From IMG/VR virus record IMGVR_UViG_3300045210_000027: a stretch of DNA of 20,000 bases. One strand, written 5' to 3'. Shown piece after piece: positions 3,089 through 12,580 of this stretch. The translations under genes were made by a program, and so were the position numbers. Numbering within the stretch: the first letter of the stretch is position 1; every line of letters starts with the position of its first letter. Under the pieces are notes generated by a model. It ran no database searches and was not told where the DNA came from. It worked only from the letters and a program-made list of their open reading frames with translations. The stretch comes from an uncultured virus (IMG/VR IMGVR_UViG_3300045210_000027). Lineage: Duplodnaviria; Heunggongvirae; Uroviricota; Caudoviricetes.

Positions 3089-3271
3089 TCAGGCCTCCTT
3101 GCTGCCCGCGGCGCGAGCGGTCGTGGCGGCCGGGGCCGCGGGCTTGCCCGCACCCTTCGGCTCCTTGTCGGTCAGGTTCGGGAACAGGTCGTGGTCGAAC
3201 CACTCCTGCGGCACGTTGTGGGGAAGCTTCTCCCCGGTGCGGGCATCCCATGCGGGCACACGCTTGGCCAT
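3089..3271 (-). CDS. Small hypothetical virion-region protein, 60 aa
   Basis: RBS AAGGAGG then ATG at 3271 (MAKRVPAWDARTGEK...). Fills the gap between the tail terminator and MTP genes. Confidence 0.75.
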   Translation of the reverse strand: MAKRVPAWDARTGEKLPHNVPQEWFDHDLFPNLTDKEPKGAGKPAAPAATTARAAGSKEA

Positions 3272-3282
3272 GGCGGCCTCCT

Positions 3283-3705
3283 TTATCCGGTGGTGGTGAG
3301 GTAGGTGAGTTGGACGTAGTGGCGGGCGGGGTTGACGCCCCGGTCCTTGAGGACCGGGAGATTGGTGATGGTGGGGTCCTCCTCCAGGGGCGCCGCCCAC
3401 GGAGTGAGTACCGTGCCGTCGAGCGCAGACCGGACGAGGGAGACGGTGTCGAGCGTCCACATCACGTCCCCGGAGGCGACCGTGAGCACGGCCTGCCAGG
3501 TGAGGTCCCCGCTGGTGGCCGACTCCAGTTCCCTGGACGCGGCCGGGCGGATACCGGGGTCGGCCCAGAGCACGACGTAGGGGTACACGCGGCCGTCCGC
3601 CGTGGCCGGCGGGTGGTCGGGGACCTCGTTGTCGTAGACGGTGATGGTGGTGATCCGGCGGAGCGCGGTGAGGACGCCCGCGTGGAGGGTGCCGACGCCG
3701 GTCAC
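3283..3705 (-). CDS. Tail terminator/completion protein
   Basis: VYDNEVP...YPYVVLW motif typical of tail terminators. GTGA overlap with the upstream gene. Confidence 0.8.
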   Translation of the reverse strand: MTGVGTLHAGVLTALRRITTITVYDNEVPDHPPATADGRVYPYVVLWADPGIRPAASRELESATSGDLTWQAVLTVASGDVMWTLDTVSLVRSALDGTVLTPWAAPLEEDPTITNLPVLKDRGVNPARHYVQLTYLTTTG

Positions 3706-4040
3706 GTGAACGGCCCCTGGGCAACCTGCTGGAACGCCTTCTCGACGGACGGCAGGACGTCAGCGAGGGCGGGTGCCATGAACGGCTGCGCCCTCATCCT
3801 GCTGGTGCCCATCTCCACGAACACGCCGTAGTTCGCGGTCGGCCCGATCTCGGCGGTCAGGCCCTGCACGTTCCGGCCGATCGAGGAGCGCAGGAAGCCG
3901 GTGTCGACCGGGGAGTGGCGCTTGCCTGCCGCCTCGACGTCCGCGGCGCCCTTCGCGATGACCGTCTCCGCGGCCGAGGTGATGTCAGCTGCGGAGAGCT
4001 TCCCGCCCAGGTTGTGCAGATCGCTGGCGTCCCAGTTCAT
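3702..4040 (-). CDS. HK97 gp10-family phage protein
   Basis: Signature PVDTGFLRSSI...YGVFVEMGTSRMRAQPFMAPA. Confidence 0.93.
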   Translation of the reverse strand: MNWDASDLHNLGGKLSAADITSAAETVIAKGAADVEAAGKRHSPVDTGFLRSSIGRNVQGLTAEIGPTANYGVFVEMGTSRMRAQPFMAPALADVLPSVEKAFQQVAQGPFT

Positions 4041-4477
4041 GGGGCACCACCGGGCTGGCTCTGCAGGTTCAGGTCCGCGTACACGACCCGCTCGAACCGG
4101 CGGGAGGAGTAGTCCAGGCCGGTGACGGTCAGGACCTTCCCCACGAGCGTGGTGTCGTCGGGGCAGGCGGTGATGGTGATGGCCGCGTCGACCGGCACTT
4201 CCGGGGCGTCGGCCTCCAGGCTGATCTGGTAGGCCCGCTGGGTGACGTCCTGCCGTGCCGCGTCCGCGGCCCCGCCTCGGCCGTCCAGTGGCTGCGCCCG
4301 GAACGGTCCCTCGTGGAGGAGAGCCCCCGGCGTGGACGGCTGGGCGCCCCCGGTGGGGGTCCAGCCACCGATACCCGGGTCCCGGATCGTGAGGTGGCCG
4401 TTGAGCGCCCCGGCGGCGGCCGGCTGGTGGTGCGGGGACCAGTCCGGGTGGATCGTGGTCGTGGAGGGGAACGGCAT
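4037..4477 (-). CDS. Head-closure/stopper-like protein
   Basis: 146 aa beta-rich ORF between the adaptor and gp10 genes. ATGA overlap with gp10. Confidence 0.7.
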   Translation of the reverse strand: MPFPSTTTIHPDWSPHHQPAAAGALNGHLTIRDPGIGGWTPTGGAQPSTPGALLHEGPFRAQPLDGRGGAADAARQDVTQRAYQISLEADAPEVPVDAAITITACPDDTTLVGKVLTVTGLDYSSRRFERVVYADLNLQSQPGGAP

Positions 4478-6350: not shown

Positions 6351-6782
6351 TCAGGCCTCCTTGATGGTTCGGCCCGTGAGGGCGGCGAGAGCGGCATCCA
6401 GGTCGGCCTCCGTGAGGTCCTCACCGCTGCCGTGGGGGTTGGTGTCGCCCAGGCCGCGGGGGGCGCCCGCGCCGCGGGCCTCCTGGGCCTCGGCCGCGGC
6501 CTCAGCCACAGCGGCGGCGAACGCCTCCTGGTCGAGGCGCCCGGACTCACCGGTGGGCGGGTCGACGAGCAGGCCGCGCCGCTCGAGGGCCGTGAACTGG
6601 TGGCCGGACTCGGCGATGATGCGGGCCGCGTGCGCCCGGTCCGCCTCCTGGTGGGCTTCGCTGACGGACTGGCGGGCGGTGTCCCGCTCGGTGATGAGGG
6701 TGTCGCGCTCGGTTTCGAGCACGGGCACCCGGCGGTCAGCCTCTTCGAGCTGAGCCAGTCGGCTCTCCTCGATCTGGGGCAT
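6351..6782 (-). CDS. Nested in-frame scaffolding protein from an internal start, 143 aa
   Basis: GAGGAGGACACC-ATG inside the protease ORF (SEEDT-MPQIEES...), at the start of the coiled-coil region. Confidence 0.65.
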   Translation of the reverse strand: MPQIEESRLAQLEEADRRVPVLETERDTLITERDTARQSVSEAHQEADRAHAARIIAESGHQFTALERRGLLVDPPTGESGRLDQEAFAAAVAEAAAEAQEARGAGAPRGLGDTNPHGSGEDLTEADLDAALAALTGRTIKEA

Positions 6783-7598
6783 GGTGTCCTCCTCGGACTC
6801 GGTGGTGTGGGGCTGCCCCGCCGGGGTGACGGGGACGAATGTGGTGACGCGGCGGACCTGGGTGGGGGTGCCGGTCAGGCTGGTGGCGTTCTCACCGGTG
6901 GTGGCGTAGGCCTGCTGCCAGGTGCCCTGGTCGGGTCCGGTGTCGATCTCGAACCAGACGGTGGTGTCGTCGTGATCGACGACGTACACGAACAGGTTGT
7001 TCCCAGCCCCGTACCTGGCCTTCAGCAGGTCGGCGAGCTCCTCGCGCCGCTGATCGGCGGTCGCCTCGGTGACGGGCTGGGTTTCGCGGACGATGAGGGG
7101 CGAGGTGCGGCGCGCGGACTCGTACACTTCGCGGACGCGGCCGCCCCTACCGGCCTGGGTCACGAAGTCGACGCTGATGCCCTGGTCGAGGGACTCCACG
7201 ACGCGGCGCCCGGACTCGTCGGCCTCCCCGAGGGTGGCCTGGGCGCGGATGGAGACGCCGATGGCGTCGTGCATCTCGGTGAGGACCTGCGTCCAGGGGC
7301 TGTACGTCTTGGCTTCGGCGACCAGTGCGGTCCCGTCCCAGCGGGCGTCCTCGGTGAGCACGCCGGCGACGTCGCGGATGGATCGTTCGGGCCGGTCGTA
7401 GTTCTCGGTCTCCCCGGGGTGGTCGCTGAACATGAGCGTGCCCGCCGGGAAGACCTTGCTTTCGGCTGCGGCCTGCAGGACCTGGGGCGTGTACACGCCG
7501 GACGAGCCGACGCCGGGAGTGATGAGCTGGATGAGCATGTTGCCGCCGGCGGCGGGGCCCGCGAGGGTGGTGCTCTCGCGGATCAGTGTCCCGGTCAT
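6351..7598 (-). CDS. Prohead maturation protease/scaffold fusion
   Basis: RBS AGGAGG then ATG at 7598. Protease-type motifs (MFSDHP, IGVSIRA, SVDFVTQAGRGG) followed by an acidic coiled-coil C-terminus. Confidence 0.85.
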   Translation of the reverse strand: MTGTLIRESTTLAGPAAGGNMLIQLITPGVGSSGVYTPQVLQAAAESKVFPAGTLMFSDHPGETENYDRPERSIRDVAGVLTEDARWDGTALVAEAKTYSPWTQVLTEMHDAIGVSIRAQATLGEADESGRRVVESLDQGISVDFVTQAGRGGRVREVYESARRTSPLIVRETQPVTEATADQRREELADLLKARYGAGNNLFVYVVDHDDTTVWFEIDTGPDQGTWQQAYATTGENATSLTGTPTQVRRVTTFVPVTPAGQPHTTESEEDTMPQIEESRLAQLEEADRRVPVLETERDTLITERDTARQSVSEAHQEADRAHAARIIAESGHQFTALERRGLLVDPPTGESGRLDQEAFAAAVAEAAAEAQEARGAGAPRGLGDTNPHGSGEDLTEADLDAALAALTGRTIKEA

Positions 7599-7639
7599 GC
7601 GCGGCACCTCCTAGGGGTGGTTGGGTGGGGCCTGTGGGT

Positions 7640-7822
7640 ATGGATGACGCGAACGACGAGGGCGGGCCGGGGGAGTGCCCGGGGCATGACTTCGTGCTGC
7701 GTCGCGTGGAGATCAAGCCGCACGGGGCGGGCATGGAGCATGAGTGCCGGTGGTGTGGCGCGGTCCTGTACCTGGCGCCGGGCTGGTCGACGCGCGGCGA
7801 GTGGGCCCCAGAGCAGACCTGA
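7640..7822 (+). CDS. Small antisense-oriented putative Zn-binding protein, 60 aa
   Basis: MDDANDEGGPGECPGHDFVL...HECRWCGAVLY has CxxH and CxxC ligand pairs and GC-rich third positions. Lies wholly in the MuF-protease intergenic gap. Confidence 0.6.
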   Translation: MDDANDEGGPGECPGHDFVLRRVEIKPHGAGMEHECRWCGAVLYLAPGWSTRGEWAPEQT

Positions 7823-7840
7823 CGCGCGGGGCATGGGTAA

Positions 7841-7867
7841 GGCCCCGGAGCGATGCTCAACGGGGCC
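7841..7867. terminator. Hairpin between converging transcripts (possible bidirectional terminator)
   Basis: GGCCCCG-GAGC-GAT-GCTC-AA-CGGGGCC. On the minus strand it is followed by TTACCCATGCCC. Confidence 0.55.
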
Positions 7868-7873
7868 AAGAGC

Positions 7874-7922
7874 GAAGGCGGCTCAGCTGTGCGAATGAGT
7901 GGTGCACTGCCTGCCGCCTTCT
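7874..7922 (-). ncRNA. Candidate small hairpin RNA directly downstream of the MuF-nuclease gene
   Basis: GAAGGCGGC...GCCGCCUUC 9-bp outer stem plus an inner GUGC/GCAC stem. The 5' end coincides with the predicted start site of the promoter at 7929-7957. Confidence 0.45.
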
Positions 7923-7924
7923 CC

Positions 7925-9469
7925 TCACACTGTACCGCGGTGGGTCAGCCATGTCACGGTCCCGTCTTTCGCGACGTGGATCGCCTCGAGGAACGAACGC
8001 TGTCCGATGAGTCGACGCCGAAGCTCGTCGAGAATGTCAGGATCGGCCAGTGGCGTGCGGGCGGTGTCGAGGATCAGCCGATCGGCCTGGTGTCGTCCTC
8101 GAGCGAGCTGCCGTGAGATCGTGTGCCGTCCCGCGCCCTGCGGGCTCTTGATCTCCCAGGCGAACCCGCCAATGGTGACGTCCGGGTTCCGGGCGCCGCG
8201 TGTGAAGTCGAGTGGATTGAACGTGATGTCCAGGCCGACCGCAGCCAGGCGGTTCGCCGTATCCAGCTCGTGCTGCGCAACGAGCAGCCCGTCTGGTCGG
8301 TACACGACGCCCGCCCGCTCGGCACCTGGCATGAGGATGCGCTCTCCGAGCGGTCCGTCGTCCCCGGCCGGTGCCCCGCGCAGCGGCCCAGTGGGTGGCC
8401 GCCCGCCCGAACCCCCACCGGAGCCCCTACCCGGTGCCCTCGCGGGCACGTGGCTGTCACGCCAACCGTCCGCGGTGCGCCGCTGGGACCACTGCTCGCG
8501 GGGCCAGTTCCCTGACCGCCACTGCTCGTAGCCGCGCCCGCCGAGGATCCGCCGCTGCTGCTCCTCCGACAGCCCCTCAAACCAGGCGTCCGCATCCGAC
8601 TGCAGGTCCCGTGGCTCGTCGATGCCCTCGAACCCGAGCTCGGCCCACGTCTTCGTCTTCGGCACCCGCGCACACCGCCCGTTCGGGTGGTCATACGGGC
8701 CAGGCTCATCAACCGGGTGCAGGGTGCCGTGCATCGCAATGCAGGACCGGCAGGTGGAGGGGTCCAGGTGTGCTTCCCACACCCAGCCGGCGAGCGTCGA
8801 CCTGTTGGCCTGGTCCACGACGTGGGAGGCCTCGCGGGCCGCGTCCAGCATCTCGGTTCGGGCGATCGTCATCGCCCTGGTCAGGCCACCGTTGAACTGG
8901 TCCTCGATGCCGCGGACCATCCTCCTGGCCGCGGTGCGCGGGTTGTCGCCCACCGCGATACCGCGGGCCAATTCCCGGCGGATCGCGGCCGTCGCTGCCG
9001 GGCTGATCTCCCGGTGCCGGGACGTGATCTGCCCGCTGACGCGCTGCACCATGGCCGTGACCTGCACGCTGCTGGCAGCGTGCAGAGTCGTACTGAGTAC
9101 GCCGCCGGCCGCCCGTGGGGGCAGCTGGGCCGTGATCATGGCCTGCTCGGCGGCGATCGCCTCATCGACTGCCACCCGCAGGCGGCCCGTAGCGCCGTCC
9201 GCCGCCTCCAGGGCGAGCTGGTCGAGCGACCCGGACACGGCCTCGAGGGCGGCCTGCATGCGTGCAGACCGGCCGATCATGGAGGGGCTGATCGTGTCCC
9301 CGTCCGCGGCCAGCGCGAGTGCGAGCGCGGCGGCGTCGACCTCGGCGGCGACCTGGTCCCAGGCCAGCACCCACGAGGCCACCAGTGCGCGAGTGTGCGC
9401 GTCCTCCACGCCACGCAGGAAGTCGTTCAGGTCCTGCTCGATGTCGAGGACGCCCCGGCCGATAGCCAC
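7925..9469 (-). CDS. MuF/SPP1 gp7-like minor head protein with a C-terminal CdiA-CT-like PD-(D/E)xK nuclease (MuF polymorphic toxin)
   Basis: MuF core (RAMTIARTE, W.WEAHLDPSTCRSC...HPNGRC), Gly/Pro linker (GRGSGGGSGGRPP), then HE...A..LA..G...NPD......WEIKSPQG...I..QL.....QA..LILD..RT. Confidence 0.88.
   Translation of the reverse strand: MAIGRGVLDIEQDLNDFLRGVEDAHTRALVASWVLAWDQVAAEVDAAALALALAADGDTISPSMIGRSARMQAALEAVSGSLDQLALEAADGATGRLRVAVDEAIAAEQAMITAQLPPRAAGGVLSTTLHAASSVQVTAMVQRVSGQITSRHREISPAATAAIRRELARGIAVGDNPRTAARRMVRGIEDQFNGGLTRAMTIARTEMLDAAREASHVVDQANRSTLAGWVWEAHLDPSTCRSCIAMHGTLHPVDEPGPYDHPNGRCARVPKTKTWAELGFEGIDEPRDLQSDADAWFEGLSEEQQRRILGGRGYEQWRSGNWPREQWSQRRTADGWRDSHVPARAPGRGSGGGSGGRPPTGPLRGAPAGDDGPLGERILMPGAERAGVVYRPDGLLVAQHELDTANRLAAVGLDITFNPLDFTRGARNPDVTIGGFAWEIKSPQGAGRHTISRQLARGRHQADRLILDTARTPLADPDILDELRRRLIGQRSFLEAIHVAKDGTVTWLTHRGTV
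7929..7957 (-). promoter_or_regulatory. Housekeeping-sigma-type promoter embedded in the last codons of MuF
   Basis: GTGACA-N17-TACAGT on the minus strand (-35 at 7957-7952, -10 at 7934-7929). Confidence 0.6.
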
Positions 9470-9481
9470 CGTGGCCCCCGC

Positions 9482-11062
9482 CTACTGGTCGGTGTAGGGG
9501 GCGCCAGCGGCGCCGCGGCCCTCACGCCACGCCCGGACCGCCTCAGACCCCGCCGTCGCGGTGGGGTCGATCCAGTTGCCGTCCTCATCGGTCGCGGCCG
9601 CGACGATGTCGTCCGCGTCCCGCACGCCGAGCGCCGCGAGCAGCAGCTTCAGGGTCTGGACGGGCGGCATCTTGCCAGTGCTGTCGGCCTTCGAGATCGC
9701 TTCCACGATCGTCTCGGCCGGGGTCTCGTCCAGTCCCGGCCACACGACCTCGATCGTGTCGTCGTCCCCGTTCGTGTCCCCAGCGAGGGCGAGCGTCTCC
9801 GCCCCGGTGAGTGGGTCGCGGCGTACCGACCCCGCCAGGGGGCCCTGGGGTGCGCGGACGGCCTGCGTAATCACGTAGCGGGCGATTGCCGTGTAGGCGG
9901 CCGTCCACACAGCCTGGCGGGCCTGCATGGCCAGCCGCATCGGAAGGTTCAGGGTCTCAGCGACCGCCCTGGCCCCTGTCTGGCCGGGGTCGGACATGAG
10001 GGTGGTGACCGGTATGTCGAGGGCGGCGGCCACCATGGTGGCCAGGGGCCGGCCGGACTCGGAGTCGATGGTGGCGCCCGTCTTCGGGATCGCCTCCAGC
10101 GTGACCTCCGGGTCCATGACCGCGGTCGCGCCGGCGTTCGTGTCGTTCCCGGCCGGGGCCTGGCCGGCGGGCCGGCGGGACAGTGCCTGGCGCAGGCGCC
10201 GCGACTTGCTGCCCTTCGTGGTGGCCCGCCACGCGAACTGCGACAGGGACTTCACGAGGGTCGCCCAGTCGGCCAGGAAGTCCCGGTAGGCGCGCGCCCA
10301 CGTGAGTGCCGAGTAGGCGTCACCGATGCCGAACTTCCAGCCCGCCAGGCCGCCGACCCGCACGTGGTAGACGGGGCTGTCCCAGTTGACGGGGTGGCCG
10401 TCGAGGAACTTGATGCGGCGGGCGGGCCGGTACCTGAGCGCCGGGTAGTACTCGGTGCGGCGCGTGTCGACCAGGCGACCCTGCTCGTTCAGGCCGCGGC
10501 TGGACCACTCGCGCTTGTAGAACCAGGGCTCGGACGCGTCCTCGGGGTTCGTGACGATGTCCGTGACCTCGTCGAACAGGATGGTGCGCATCTGCACGTA
10601 CCCCGTGCGGGGGCTGGTGAAGCAGGCGATGAACACGTTGCCGTCCGTGCCGATGGCCCGCTCCAGGGTCTCCTGGGCCTGGCTGCCGGTCACGGCCGCC
10701 TGGTTCCCTTCGTCCTGCCACCAGGCGCGGATGACGGCGTTCACGTCCTGCTGGCCGTCCTCCTGCCCGTTCGCCCTGGCCGCGATCTCCACGCCCTGCC
10801 CGAACACGTAGGCCTGCCTGACGGCCAGGCCCCGCTTGATGAGGGGGTTGGCGATCGCGAACACGCGGGCGTTGCGGGCGATGGTGGTCAGGCCGGCGCG
10901 GGAGAACTCCTCGTCCATGCCGGCGGTGAGGGACCGCCACCCGGCGTCGTCCATCGCGAGCTCGAGGTCGGCGACGGACTCGCGGAGGATCTCGATCTCG
11001 TTGCGGTACTGGTCGGCTTCGGTGGTCGCCTTCCGGCCGGTGAGTGTGTCCCACAGGGGCAT
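9482..11062 (-). CDS. Portal protein, 526 aa
   Basis: Size and position after TerL. NPLIKRGL...YVFGQG and DGNVF motifs. Confidence 0.9.
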   Translation of the reverse strand: MPLWDTLTGRKATTEADQYRNEIEILRESVADLELAMDDAGWRSLTAGMDEEFSRAGLTTIARNARVFAIANPLIKRGLAVRQAYVFGQGVEIAARANGQEDGQQDVNAVIRAWWQDEGNQAAVTGSQAQETLERAIGTDGNVFIACFTSPRTGYVQMRTILFDEVTDIVTNPEDASEPWFYKREWSSRGLNEQGRLVDTRRTEYYPALRYRPARRIKFLDGHPVNWDSPVYHVRVGGLAGWKFGIGDAYSALTWARAYRDFLADWATLVKSLSQFAWRATTKGSKSRRLRQALSRRPAGQAPAGNDTNAGATAVMDPEVTLEAIPKTGATIDSESGRPLATMVAAALDIPVTTLMSDPGQTGARAVAETLNLPMRLAMQARQAVWTAAYTAIARYVITQAVRAPQGPLAGSVRRDPLTGAETLALAGDTNGDDDTIEVVWPGLDETPAETIVEAISKADSTGKMPPVQTLKLLLAALGVRDADDIVAAATDEDGNWIDPTATAGSEAVRAWREGRGAAGAPYTDQ

Positions 11063-11089: not shown

Positions 11090-12580
11090 CTAGTAGGTGG
11101 CGAGGTAGCCGTGCGGGTCGTCCTCGAGGAGTTCGTCGCTGGTGACCTGGTCGTCCTCGTCGAGGATCGGCAGGAGGAGCAGCTGGTCGAGGGCCTGGGA
11201 CAGGGCGTCGATGGTGTCGTCGTGGCTGGCGTTGGGGAAGCCGCGGGCTTCCTCCAGGAGCTCGGCCACGTTCGGCAGGATCTCGGGGGTGGGTAGGTGC
11301 ACGTTGTGGGCGTGCACGAACGGGGACACGGCGGCGGCGCGGGAGTACTTCGAGCCGCGGGGCTCGACGGGGATGAGGCCGGGGACCTGGCCGGACAGGA
11401 GCGTGATCACTGCGGGGCCGTTGGCCTTGTCCTCGACGAACTTCGCGACGGCCTGCGGCCACTTCCGTGTCATGGCCCGGATCGCGGCGAGGGTCGCGTT
11501 GATGTTCATGCGGGCCCGCACCTGGTCCACGAGGTAGGCGTGGACGCCGATGCGGAGCCACACCTGGCCGACGACGTAGTCGCTGGACTTGGTGTCCTTG
11601 AACGTCAAGTCCCACGACTGGATGAGTTCGACGTCCTCGCCGGGCACCCACTTGGTGCCGTCCGCGCGTTCGACCCAGGGGGGTGTGTCGTAGGTGGCCC
11701 ATTCGGCGGGGAACAGGTCACCGGCTTCGGGGCTGGGGCGGCCCTGGTAGAGGGCGGCCCAGTCTCGGGGGCCGGCCTGCACCTTGCGGGCGTCCCACTG
11801 GCTGGTGGTGCGGCCCCTCGCGGACAGCATGTATTCGCCGGGTGCGCGGCCGAGCGGGTCGGTCTGGCCCTTCTCGGGCCGGTGGTCGGCCTGGGCGGGG
11901 ATGTTGATGACGTCCCACAGGTCGCCGTCTTCTTGTTCGAGGAGTCGGCCGGCGAGGTCGGCGTGATGCCAGCGGGTGAGGATGAGGATGACGGGGGCGC
12001 CGGGTGCGAGGCGGGAGGAGGCGGTGGAGGTCCACCAGTCCCAGACGCGGTCGCGGTAGGTCTCGGAGTCGGCCTGTTCGCGGTCCTTGAGGGGGTCGTC
12101 GATGATCATCGCGTCGGCGGGGCGGGAGGTGAGGGCGCCGCCGACTCCGACTGCGTACACGCTGCCGGGTCGGCCTGCGAGCTCGAACTCGTTCTGTGCG
12201 GCGACGTCGTCGCGGAGCCGGATGTTGAGGGTGTCGGTGTGGGTGGTGATCTCGTCGCGGATGAGGCGGCCCATGCGGCGGGCGACGGCGGCCGCGTATG
12301 AGGCGATGACGATGCGCGTGTCGGGGGAGCGGTTGAGTAGCCAGGCGGGGGCCCACTTGGTGGCGAGCGTGGACTTGCCCTCCTGTGGGGGCATGCTGAT
12401 GATCAGGCGGGCGTCGGGGGTGGTGAGTGCGCGTGTGAGGGCCTGGTCGATGAGGTCGATTGCGGGGGTGCGGCGGAACCTGGGGTCGAGTGCGGCGCCC
12501 ATGGTTGCGGGGGTGTCCCACCGGGGGGCGGGGGTGGGTTCGAACTGTCGGGCGGCGTGCTCCCAGGCTGTCAGGAGCAC
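11090..12580 (-). CDS. terL: Terminase large subunit, 496 aa
   Basis: Walker A (IISMPPQEGKS), Walker B (MIIDDP), nuclease motifs (QSWDLTFK, VEDKANG, HDDTIDA). RBS GGAGG. Confidence 0.96.
   Translation of the reverse strand: MLLTAWEHAARQFEPTPAPRWDTPATMGAALDPRFRRTPAIDLIDQALTRALTTPDARLIISMPPQEGKSTLATKWAPAWLLNRSPDTRIVIASYAAAVARRMGRLIRDEITTHTDTLNIRLRDDVAAQNEFELAGRPGSVYAVGVGGALTSRPADAMIIDDPLKDREQADSETYRDRVWDWWTSTASSRLAPGAPVILILTRWHHADLAGRLLEQEDGDLWDVINIPAQADHRPEKGQTDPLGRAPGEYMLSARGRTTSQWDARKVQAGPRDWAALYQGRPSPEAGDLFPAEWATYDTPPWVERADGTKWVPGEDVELIQSWDLTFKDTKSSDYVVGQVWLRIGVHAYLVDQVRARMNINATLAAIRAMTRKWPQAVAKFVEDKANGPAVITLLSGQVPGLIPVEPRGSKYSRAAAVSPFVHAHNVHLPTPEILPNVAELLEEARGFPNASHDDTIDALSQALDQLLLLPILDEDDQVTSDELLEDDPHGYLATY

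Follow-up and report, generated by a model that had tools for sequence, protein, structure and literature searches.

Which element stands in for the immunity gene behind a phage-borne nuclease toxin that no small co-oriented immunity gene follows? This question is raised by a 20-kb stretch of DNA (the window) out of the 22-kb uncultured viral contig IMGVR_UViG_3300045210_000027 (estimated completeness 43%, G+C 70%), whose minus strand encodes a MuF head protein fused to a C-terminal nuclease domain, with two hairpins in the 102 nt past the stop codon of the fusion. Comparative analysis revealed that a hairpin RNA unit is tightly linked to the nuclease domain across carriers, phyla and orientations, and the unit appears to be the conserved genetic partner of this CdiA_C/Bp1026b-type domain. 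We lean slightly towards the view that the unit specifies a promoter-driven small RNA, the toxin's partner, which would bind and neutralise the toxin in the manner of a type III toxin-antitoxin (TA) RNA. Positions below are those of the window; related loci are labelled L, genomes G, and R1 denotes the covariance model of the RNA unit.

A putative small RNA gene past the toxin stop codon

The first-pass annotation, made from the letters of the window, had placed a GTGACA-N17-TACAGT promoter in the last toxin codons, a hairpin at its predicted start and a second hairpin at 7867-7841. The promoter-like site was recovered at 7957-7929 on the minus strand, with the -35-like hexamer GTGACA (7952-7957) within the toxin open reading frame (ORF) and the -10 box TACAGT (TAnnnT, 7929-7934) within its last codons (G-T-V-stop), and it is the sole sigma-70-like match in 7400-8400, where shuffled sequences average 0.1. 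Both hairpins were likewise found where predicted. Hairpin 1, the conserved RNA (7874-7921, minus strand, 48 nt, 66.4 bits), begins 7 nt past the -10 box; its outer stem (GAAGGCGGC/GCCGCCUUC) has 9 bp and leads through an A/GA internal loop to a helix of 3 bp, then to an A-A mismatch within CAG/CAG, a helix of 4 bp and a loop of 11 nt. Hairpin 2 (7841-7867, minus strand; GGCCCCG...CGGGGCC, then UUACCC) is likely a terminator that ends the small RNA and both convergent genes, and a counterpart sits after the RNA unit in L115 and L169. Folded jointly, the two hairpins reach -51.6 kcal/mol (z = -4.0), a value matched by 0 of 200 shuffles, and a structure descriptor of the hairpin core has a single match in the 20-kb window, at hairpin 1. 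Rfam 15, searched at E up to 1, returned nothing at the RNA positions of the window and 27 related loci, ARAGORN placed no tRNA at the hairpins, and tandem repeats are absent from 7500-8500. The resemblance of one arm to a tRNA D-arm was judged to be chance and dropped.

The RNA unit beside related phage toxins

Viral and metagenome collections were scanned with patterns, and R1 was then built. A unit composed of a -10 box, 6-8 nt and an asymmetric hairpin abuts the toxin stop, on either strand, in the window and 14 further loci. R1 gave 54-80 bits in the window, L014, L015, L121/L125 (the second prophage within G001), L092, L095, L096, L128, L131, L134, L135, L137 and L172, and 36 bits in L160 and L168; the first 11 units scored 57-80 bits forward and 14-24 bits on the reverse strand. 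The nearest toxin homologues (43-53% identical) ride on a different carrier, Phage_min_cap2 (PF06152), with no ORF before the scaffold gene and with the hairpin directly past the toxin stop, reverse-complemented relative to the window, an orientation that can be read because the stem is imperfect. Thirteen loci that form one clade carry the unit in the opposite orientation to the toxin, a correction to the earlier picture of an RNA following its toxin on the same strand, which holds for the window. Altogether, the toxin domain and the unit were found together on three different N-terminal carriers and on stand-alone toxins, in agreement with the earlier proposal that an RNA occupies the immunity slot and travels with the toxin tip as one cassette. 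Within a single Microbacterium genome, L121 (G001:C9:121000-137000) and L015 are two related prophages ~119 kb apart, each encoding a fusion of minor capsid protein and toxin, accompanied by a separate RNA unit.

As a structure, the unit is discrete, has an orientation and covaries; its promoter box keeps a fixed distance, and its end resembles a terminator. A TAnnnT box, present as TAGAAT, TAGAGT, TATGAT, TAACAT, TAGACT or TACCCT beside the TACAGT of the window, precedes the hairpin foot by 6-8 nt; a script located it in 14 of the 18 aligned units, and it was recognised by eye in L135. In the alignment of these 18 units (A5), 99.3% of cells are paired, compared with 32-60% in slid controls, and double changes are seen at three pairs; shuffling lowers the covariation score from 0.205 to a mean of 0.117, with none of 500 shuffles attaining the observed value. 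L160 retains the core under an entirely different outer stem and has a TACACT box of its own; in L172 the 3-bp helix is altered on both sides. The layout of outer stem, internal loop, 3 bp, A-A mismatch within CAG/CAG, 4 bp and variable loop recurs in L169, L174 and L176 in letters that differ from those of the window, with a TAnnnT at or just past the toxin stop and a terminator after the hairpin; R1 missed L169, L175 and L176, whose likeness was seen in a descriptor scan (L169) and by reading of folds. The core descriptor has 18 matches in 339 kb of toxin loci, seven of them within -40 to +200 nt of the stop. Chance pattern matches lacking the outer stem (L098, L101, L104, L106-L111, L113, L114, L139 and L143) were dropped before counting.

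Stand-alone toxins and a clade with a protein partner

Forty-five genomic homologues of the toxin were collected, mostly stand-alone genes of 125-160 aa from Saccharibacteria and related uncultured bacteria, and at least 33 of them have a related promoter-hairpin(-terminator) gene directly past the stop. By partner type, R1 was assigned at two loci, a related Propionibacteriaceae type at two, CPR1 at 22 (17 by regular expression and five by eye) and CPR2 at seven; the partner is a protein at three loci, and nine are unclassed, several of which have a -10 box and hairpin by eye and one a RelB-like ORF. Past the stop of the stand-alone genes stands an extended -10 box (TGCTATAAT, TGCTATACT), followed after ~8 nt by a hairpin with GAAGG at its start, CCUUC at its end and CAG...CAG inside, and then by a U-tract or a second canonical terminator. 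In the alignment of 21 CPR1 units, the T, A and T of the -10 box (TAnnnT) are invariant in 21/21 and compensatory changes occur in 6 of 11 predicted pairs. The neighbour genes of the stand-alone toxins vary by locus, and therefore the conserved module is the toxin with its RNA gene. Two unrelated Rfam matches were also observed in Saccharibacteria loci, a LOOT RNA (75 bits; L023:2491-2611, minus strand) and a group I intron (51 bits; L042:7529-7737, minus strand).

At four loci, L008 (a MuF fusion), L019, L022 and L037, the toxin stop is instead overlapped by an ORF of 100-112 aa. These ORFs are mutually homologous, their family has no sequence relative in the PDB, and an R1 scan detected no RNA unit at any of the four loci. 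The toxins of these loci form a single clade (support 91/97) in a tree of 64 rows, from which the truncated L043 was left out, and in the remaining clades the RNA types track the toxin clade. The RNA unit and the small protein partner are thus mutually exclusive in their distribution.

Toxin-less relatives and orphan units

A conserved terminal promoter and a covarying hairpin had been expected among homologues if the RNA belonged to the toxin, and the search proved positive, with the unit absent from toxin-less relatives as well as from the clade with the protein partner. In 26 toxin-less loci (L064-L089), no credible R1 match was obtained, the only hits being of 16.2 and 14.5 bits in unrelated places. 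L149 and L151, in which the minor capsid proteins are 70% identical to those of the toxin carriers and the toxin is absent, are also without an RNA unit, and the unit was found in 0 of 150 other genomes sampled from the order of G001. In L149, the slot held by toxin tip and RNA in other phages is occupied by a gene that is HNH endonuclease-like by its sequence motifs (3657-4142, minus strand), flanked by the minor capsid and scaffold genes and opposite to them in strand.

RNA units were also observed away from the toxin. In L115 (2506-3402, minus strand), an EndoU nuclease tip (PF14436) and a 79-aa ORF lie upstream of a stub of ~18 codons from the C-terminus of a CdiA_C domain, which leads into a TACCCT box, the RNA unit, a terminator like hairpin 2 and the scaffold gene. 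Judged by this order, the EndoU domain and small ORF appear to have displaced the CdiA_C domain, leaving the RNA unit in the position of an orphan immunity gene, in what looks like C-terminal displacement in a degraded prophage. Orphan toxin-tip and immunity modules are reportedly generated by such displacement in polymorphic toxin loci; L115 resembles them in that a new tip lies upstream while the last codons of the old tip and the downstream partner remain, and differs in that the leftover partner is an RNA unit and not a protein immunity gene. Four other integrated elements (L103, L105, L116 and L100) hold units with no CdiA_C domain within 2.5 kb. The unit of L105 adjoins an excisionase-like HTH_17 gene, and L103 represents the same chromosomal site. 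L116 carries two inverted copies of ~140 nt (2440-2700 and 4180-4400), each with promoter, hairpin A, hairpin B and terminator, which flank an integrase fragment and tRNA genes, with a PemK/MazF-type toxin gene close by (L116:1667-2233). By analogy, such toxin-less RNA units may be likened to orphan immunity genes.

The nuclease domain

The fusion's C-terminal domain (7928-8311, minus strand, aa ~387-514) was assigned to the PD-(D/E)XK nucleases of the CdiA_C/CdiA-CT Bp1026b type by a Pfam scan (PF18451, aa 427-505, E 5.5e-9) and by structural modelling. An AlphaFold (AF2) model of the last 141 residues, built from 25 homologues, has a pLDDT of 93.8, and its top Foldseek match is 4g6v_A, the CdiA-CT of Burkholderia pseudomallei 1026b (probability 1.00, E 1.8e-7, TM 0.70/0.74), which is the sole strong match among solved structures, the second-best having an E of 0.026. 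Comparison with 4g6v by sequence alone is weak (E 0.26, 18% identity), yet the NPD motif is aligned. All 25 homologues share E28, D57 and K68 (domain numbering), and 24 of them have E or D at position 66, where L037 has F. The domain thus combines the fold of 4G6V chain A with the catalytic Glu, Asp, Asp/Glu and Lys of the Bp1026b type.

The 4G6V toxin is described as a Mg-dependent PD-(D/E)XK enzyme with residues E187, D214, D223 and K242 that cuts the acceptor stem of tRNA-Ala, and some other PD-(D/E)XK CdiA-CTs are described as DNases (both PMC9086364). The earlier label of a tRNase-like toxin is accordingly kept for its likeness to the 4g6v fold, and is to be taken as a fold-based reading, not an assay-based one, because other toxins sharing the fold are DNases. 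PADLOC and NCBIfam hold no family for the toxin. In a profile search, 2,942 cluster representatives matched at E up to 0.001, a number that falls to 1,043 when E is limited to 1e-10; among the best 150 matches, 94 are shorter than 200 aa, and the 56 longer ones carry the domain at or near the C-terminal end.

Phage setting and the search for a protein antidote

The minus strand of the window holds a head module with the large terminase (11090-12580), the portal (9482-11062), the MuF-toxin ORF (7925-9469), a protease/scaffold-like gene (6351-7607; PHROG 15531, E 1.7e-24; AGGAGG ribosome-binding site) that is the next co-oriented head gene, a decoration protein and the major capsid protein. The fusion ORF spans 514 aa from the first GTG (494 aa in the gene-caller version, P0004) and, as read initially, ends at 7925 (stop TGA, 7927-7925) and unites MuF and CdiA_C, with a Phage_Mu_F domain (8669-8986, aa 162-267; PF04233, E 7.8e-12) joined by a Gly/Pro-rich linker to PF18451. 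It resembles the MuF polymorphic toxins of temperate phages, in which an N-terminal MuF encoded in the packaging/head module is followed by a variable C-terminal toxin (PMC5576092): PF04233 and the neighbour genes place its MuF in such a module, and the extension with PF18451 at aa 427-505 is missing from short MuF relatives. Unlike for most MuF toxins described there, no small co-oriented immunity ORF lies directly downstream, and the predicted promoter-driven hairpin RNA takes its place. In comparison with related phages, the window has acquired the nuclease domain with its linker, along with the 102 nt that contain both hairpins. Within this one ORF, the G+C content at third codon positions (GC3) is 0.77 in the toxin domain (7928-8311) and 0.90 in the MuF part (8435-9469), and the lower value would be consistent with recent acquisition of the tip.

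The claim that no co-oriented coding gene follows the toxin was upheld. The only ORF on that strand, of 79 aa (7595-7834), was rejected as a gene, being Arg/Pro-rich, of junk-like composition (GC of 0.81/0.61/0.75 by codon position) and antisense to a conserved gene, and represents a high-G+C artefact; no other ORF overlapping the toxin region has a coding-like GC pattern. The gap itself is not empty as had been assumed, and a convergent zinc-ribbon-like gene of 60 aa (7640-7822, plus strand; CPGH...CRWCG, GC3 0.90), unrelated to the toxin, fills most of it. This gene has no Pfam or PHROG family; its homologues are 56-57% identical, with relatives in 26 non-identical viral loci (L064-L089) in which CPGH and CRWCG are invariant. 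In 25 of the 26 loci, the gene (MDDAN...CPGH...CRWCG) sits between MuF and the protease/scaffold gene on the other strand, tail to tail with MuF, and in 18 of these 25 pairs the stop codons share 4 nt. A CdiA_C domain is encoded at none of the 26 loci, and in 24 of the 25 MuF loci the MuF has neither a toxin domain nor a long C-terminal extension. The match of the 25 relatives to the MuF of the window stops at ~aa 339-359, most of the proteins having ~345-350 aa, and four frames continue for 34-218 codons past it. Since the 60-aa gene is kept beside toxin-less MuF, it belongs to the phage lineage and not to the toxin cassette, and it was ruled out as an immunity gene. In L087, MuF carries a different extension of ~218 aa (3258-3920, minus strand), possibly a further toxin tip, which matches LPD1 weakly (E 0.0024); a strongly folding spacer of 149 nt separates it from the small convergent gene.

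A hidden Markov model (HMM) of the protein family found at L008, L019, L022 and L037 detected two copies in the positive-control genome G003. It gave no match in the window or in any RNA-bearing locus, none in the proviruses G155 and G156 (both at least 90% complete), and none in G001 (3.7 Mb, with two toxin and RNA prophages) or G002.

Proposed mechanism and competing explanations

Combining these data, it is proposed that the 102 nt past the toxin stop would constitute a self-contained small RNA gene, whose -10 box of sigma-A type, TACAGT, lies within the final codons of the toxin. The transcript would begin at the hairpin foot and end past hairpin 1, in the window past hairpin 2, as an RNA of ~50-90 nt. 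Most likely, this RNA would neutralise the toxin protein directly, as a structured pseudo-substrate or an inhibitor, analogous to the type III antitoxin RNAs that inhibit their RNases, and the invariant non-canonical core, with its A-A mismatch in CAG/CAG, suggests recognition by a protein. Having its own promoter, the RNA could be produced in the lysogen at a time when late head genes are off, and it would then protect lysogens from toxin in sibling virions. We give an even chance to the broader proposal of a widespread two-part system, in which a PD-(D/E)XK tRNase-like toxin is paired with a single promoter-driven hairpin RNA as its neutraliser.

Several observations weigh against a neutralising RNA gene. 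The GTGACA hexamer is not conserved in relatives, an own -10 box is missing in three of the 18 aligned units (L100 and the second hairpins of L116), and the terminator region of the window lacks a canonical U-tract. Metatranscriptome runs X21-X24 yielded contigs only, which span everything and mark no transcript ends. The invariance in A5 is partly due to the finding of loci by exact pattern scans, and, with RNA types that parallel the toxin clades, few independent events can be counted and the linkage could be co-inheritance. Small downstream ORFs are reported for 89.4% of 191 MuF toxin genes, leaving ~10% without one (Jamet et al. 2017, PMC5576092). Immunity proteins are diverse, and an unrecognised one may lie elsewhere in the phage, the contig being 43% complete, or in the host; a toxin made only late in lysis may also need no antidote.

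The alternative that survives best is an RNA that partners the nuclease without being an antidote, as a cofactor, an activator, a dedicated substrate or an aid to folding or packaging into the capsid, in which case the protein may be non-toxic alone. Such a partner predicts the same linkage, covariation and invariant A-A core, and comparative data cannot separate inhibition from activation. We nevertheless find it unlikely: one toxin clade swapped the RNA for a small overlapping protein in the classic immunity position, and RNA units persist toxin-less elsewhere and beside a toxin stub, a pattern more in keeping with an antidote than with a cofactor. Among solved structures, the nearest relative is moreover reported to inhibit growth and to have an immunity protein that blocks its active site (PMC9086364).

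Fewer chances still are given to an antisense or cis regulator, similar to type I, that pairs with the 3' end of the toxin mRNA and cuts its stability or translation. In 13 loci, unit and toxin gene are convergent, with 1-9 nt between the unit's end and the toxin stop, and therefore late read-through transcripts would include its exact complement. On the other hand, the unit lies downstream on the same strand, with no complementarity, in the window, L115, L168, L169, L174-L176 and all stand-alone homologues, so that mRNA pairing cannot be the general mode; the fused toxin domain, having no translation start of its own and hence no ribosome-binding site to block, further argues against it, and a conserved irregular helix is not needed for antisense action.

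Equally improbable in our view is a generic promoter and terminator insulating a mosaic junction, with no tie to the toxin and with an antidote that is a protein elsewhere or is not needed, although a hairpin between convergent or tandem genes is where terminators are expected, the promoter faces the scaffold/capsid genes in the window and L115, units occur away from the toxin in L103, L105, L116 and L100, and the ~10% of MuF toxin genes reported without a small downstream ORF (Jamet et al. 2017, PMC5576092) would accord with it. An insulator does not account for the 27 toxin-less relatives with equal gene order and no unit, for the units with their own terminator behind stand-alone toxins in unrelated chromosomal contexts, for the promoter facing away from the head genes in 13 loci, or for the absence of the unit from all 150 sampled genomes.

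A hairpin acting at the DNA level, as a recombination or homing site that moves the nuclease cassette and is possibly recognised by the nuclease, is the least probable of all, for although units occur in either orientation, at cassette borders and beside an integrase fragment in L116, PD-(D/E)XK enzymes include DNA-structure nucleases and GC3 of the toxin domain is below that of its carrier (0.77 vs 0.90), the TAnnnT at a fixed 6-8 nt from the hairpin foot and the U-tract terminators in low-GC hosts point to a transcript, and G-U pairs are tolerated on one strand only, as seen in the forward and reverse R1 scores of the first 11 units.

Comparison with known systems and biological significance

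With CdiA-CT/CdiI of Bp1026b (4G6V) the module shares the PD-(D/E)XK fold, in which E28, D57, E/D66 and K68 correspond to E187, D214, D223 and K242; it differs in its 18% identity, in its carrier, which is a phage head protein or none and not CdiA, and in its partner, an RNA gene and not the CdiI protein, the tRNA-Ala acceptor stem being the substrate described for Bp1026b. The nuclease domain (cd13442) of Bp1026b CdiA-2 has been cited as a highly toxic example of a polymorphic toxin (PMC5576092).

With the type III TA systems (ToxIN, CptIN and TenpIN), as they are described, the module has in common a nuclease toxin and a small structured non-coding RNA without a protein antidote, frequency on mobile elements and phages and, by analogy, the proposed mode of direct inhibition of a protein by an RNA. 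Type III RNAs, in these descriptions, are tandem repeats upstream of the toxin that are co-transcribed with it and cut by it. Here, unlike in type III, no upstream co-transcribed tandem RNA repeats are found: a single hairpin (two in L116), without repeats and with its own -10 box, lies downstream of or converges on a toxin whose fold is PD-(D/E)XK and not ToxN-like. Neither does the module resemble type I systems, in which the RNA is antisense to the mRNA of a small membrane toxin, since the RNA lies on the same strand and the toxin is a 14-kDa nuclease domain.

The general view is that proteins confer immunity to polymorphic toxins (CDI, Rhs, MuF and others), and we know of RNA antitoxins acting on the toxin protein only in the ToxN-like type III families; our literature search found no paper tying this toxin family to an RNA partner. 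Should the toxin be neutralised by the RNA, a PD-(D/E)XK nuclease with an RNA as its partner would be an exception to both rules. The system would then represent a new family of RNA antitoxins, common as stand-alone pairs in Saccharibacteria and present in Actinomycetota and Bacillota, and a sizeable toxin family, with the 2,942 cluster representatives mentioned above, would join the RNA-antitoxin systems. The pair would be compact, with ~130 aa of protein and ~45 nt of RNA, and its stand-alone occurrence in the reduced genomes of Saccharibacteria suggests a role in conflicts of mobile elements or of the host.

For phages, the RNA would be the first RNA "immunity" to a polymorphic toxin, carried with the toxin tip on head proteins, and it would explain phage-borne toxin genes that are seemingly without an antidote gene. 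Toxin-less copies in mobile elements would act as orphan RNA immunity against incoming phage toxin, which raises the idea that prophages may swap small RNA genes as protection against each other's injected toxins.

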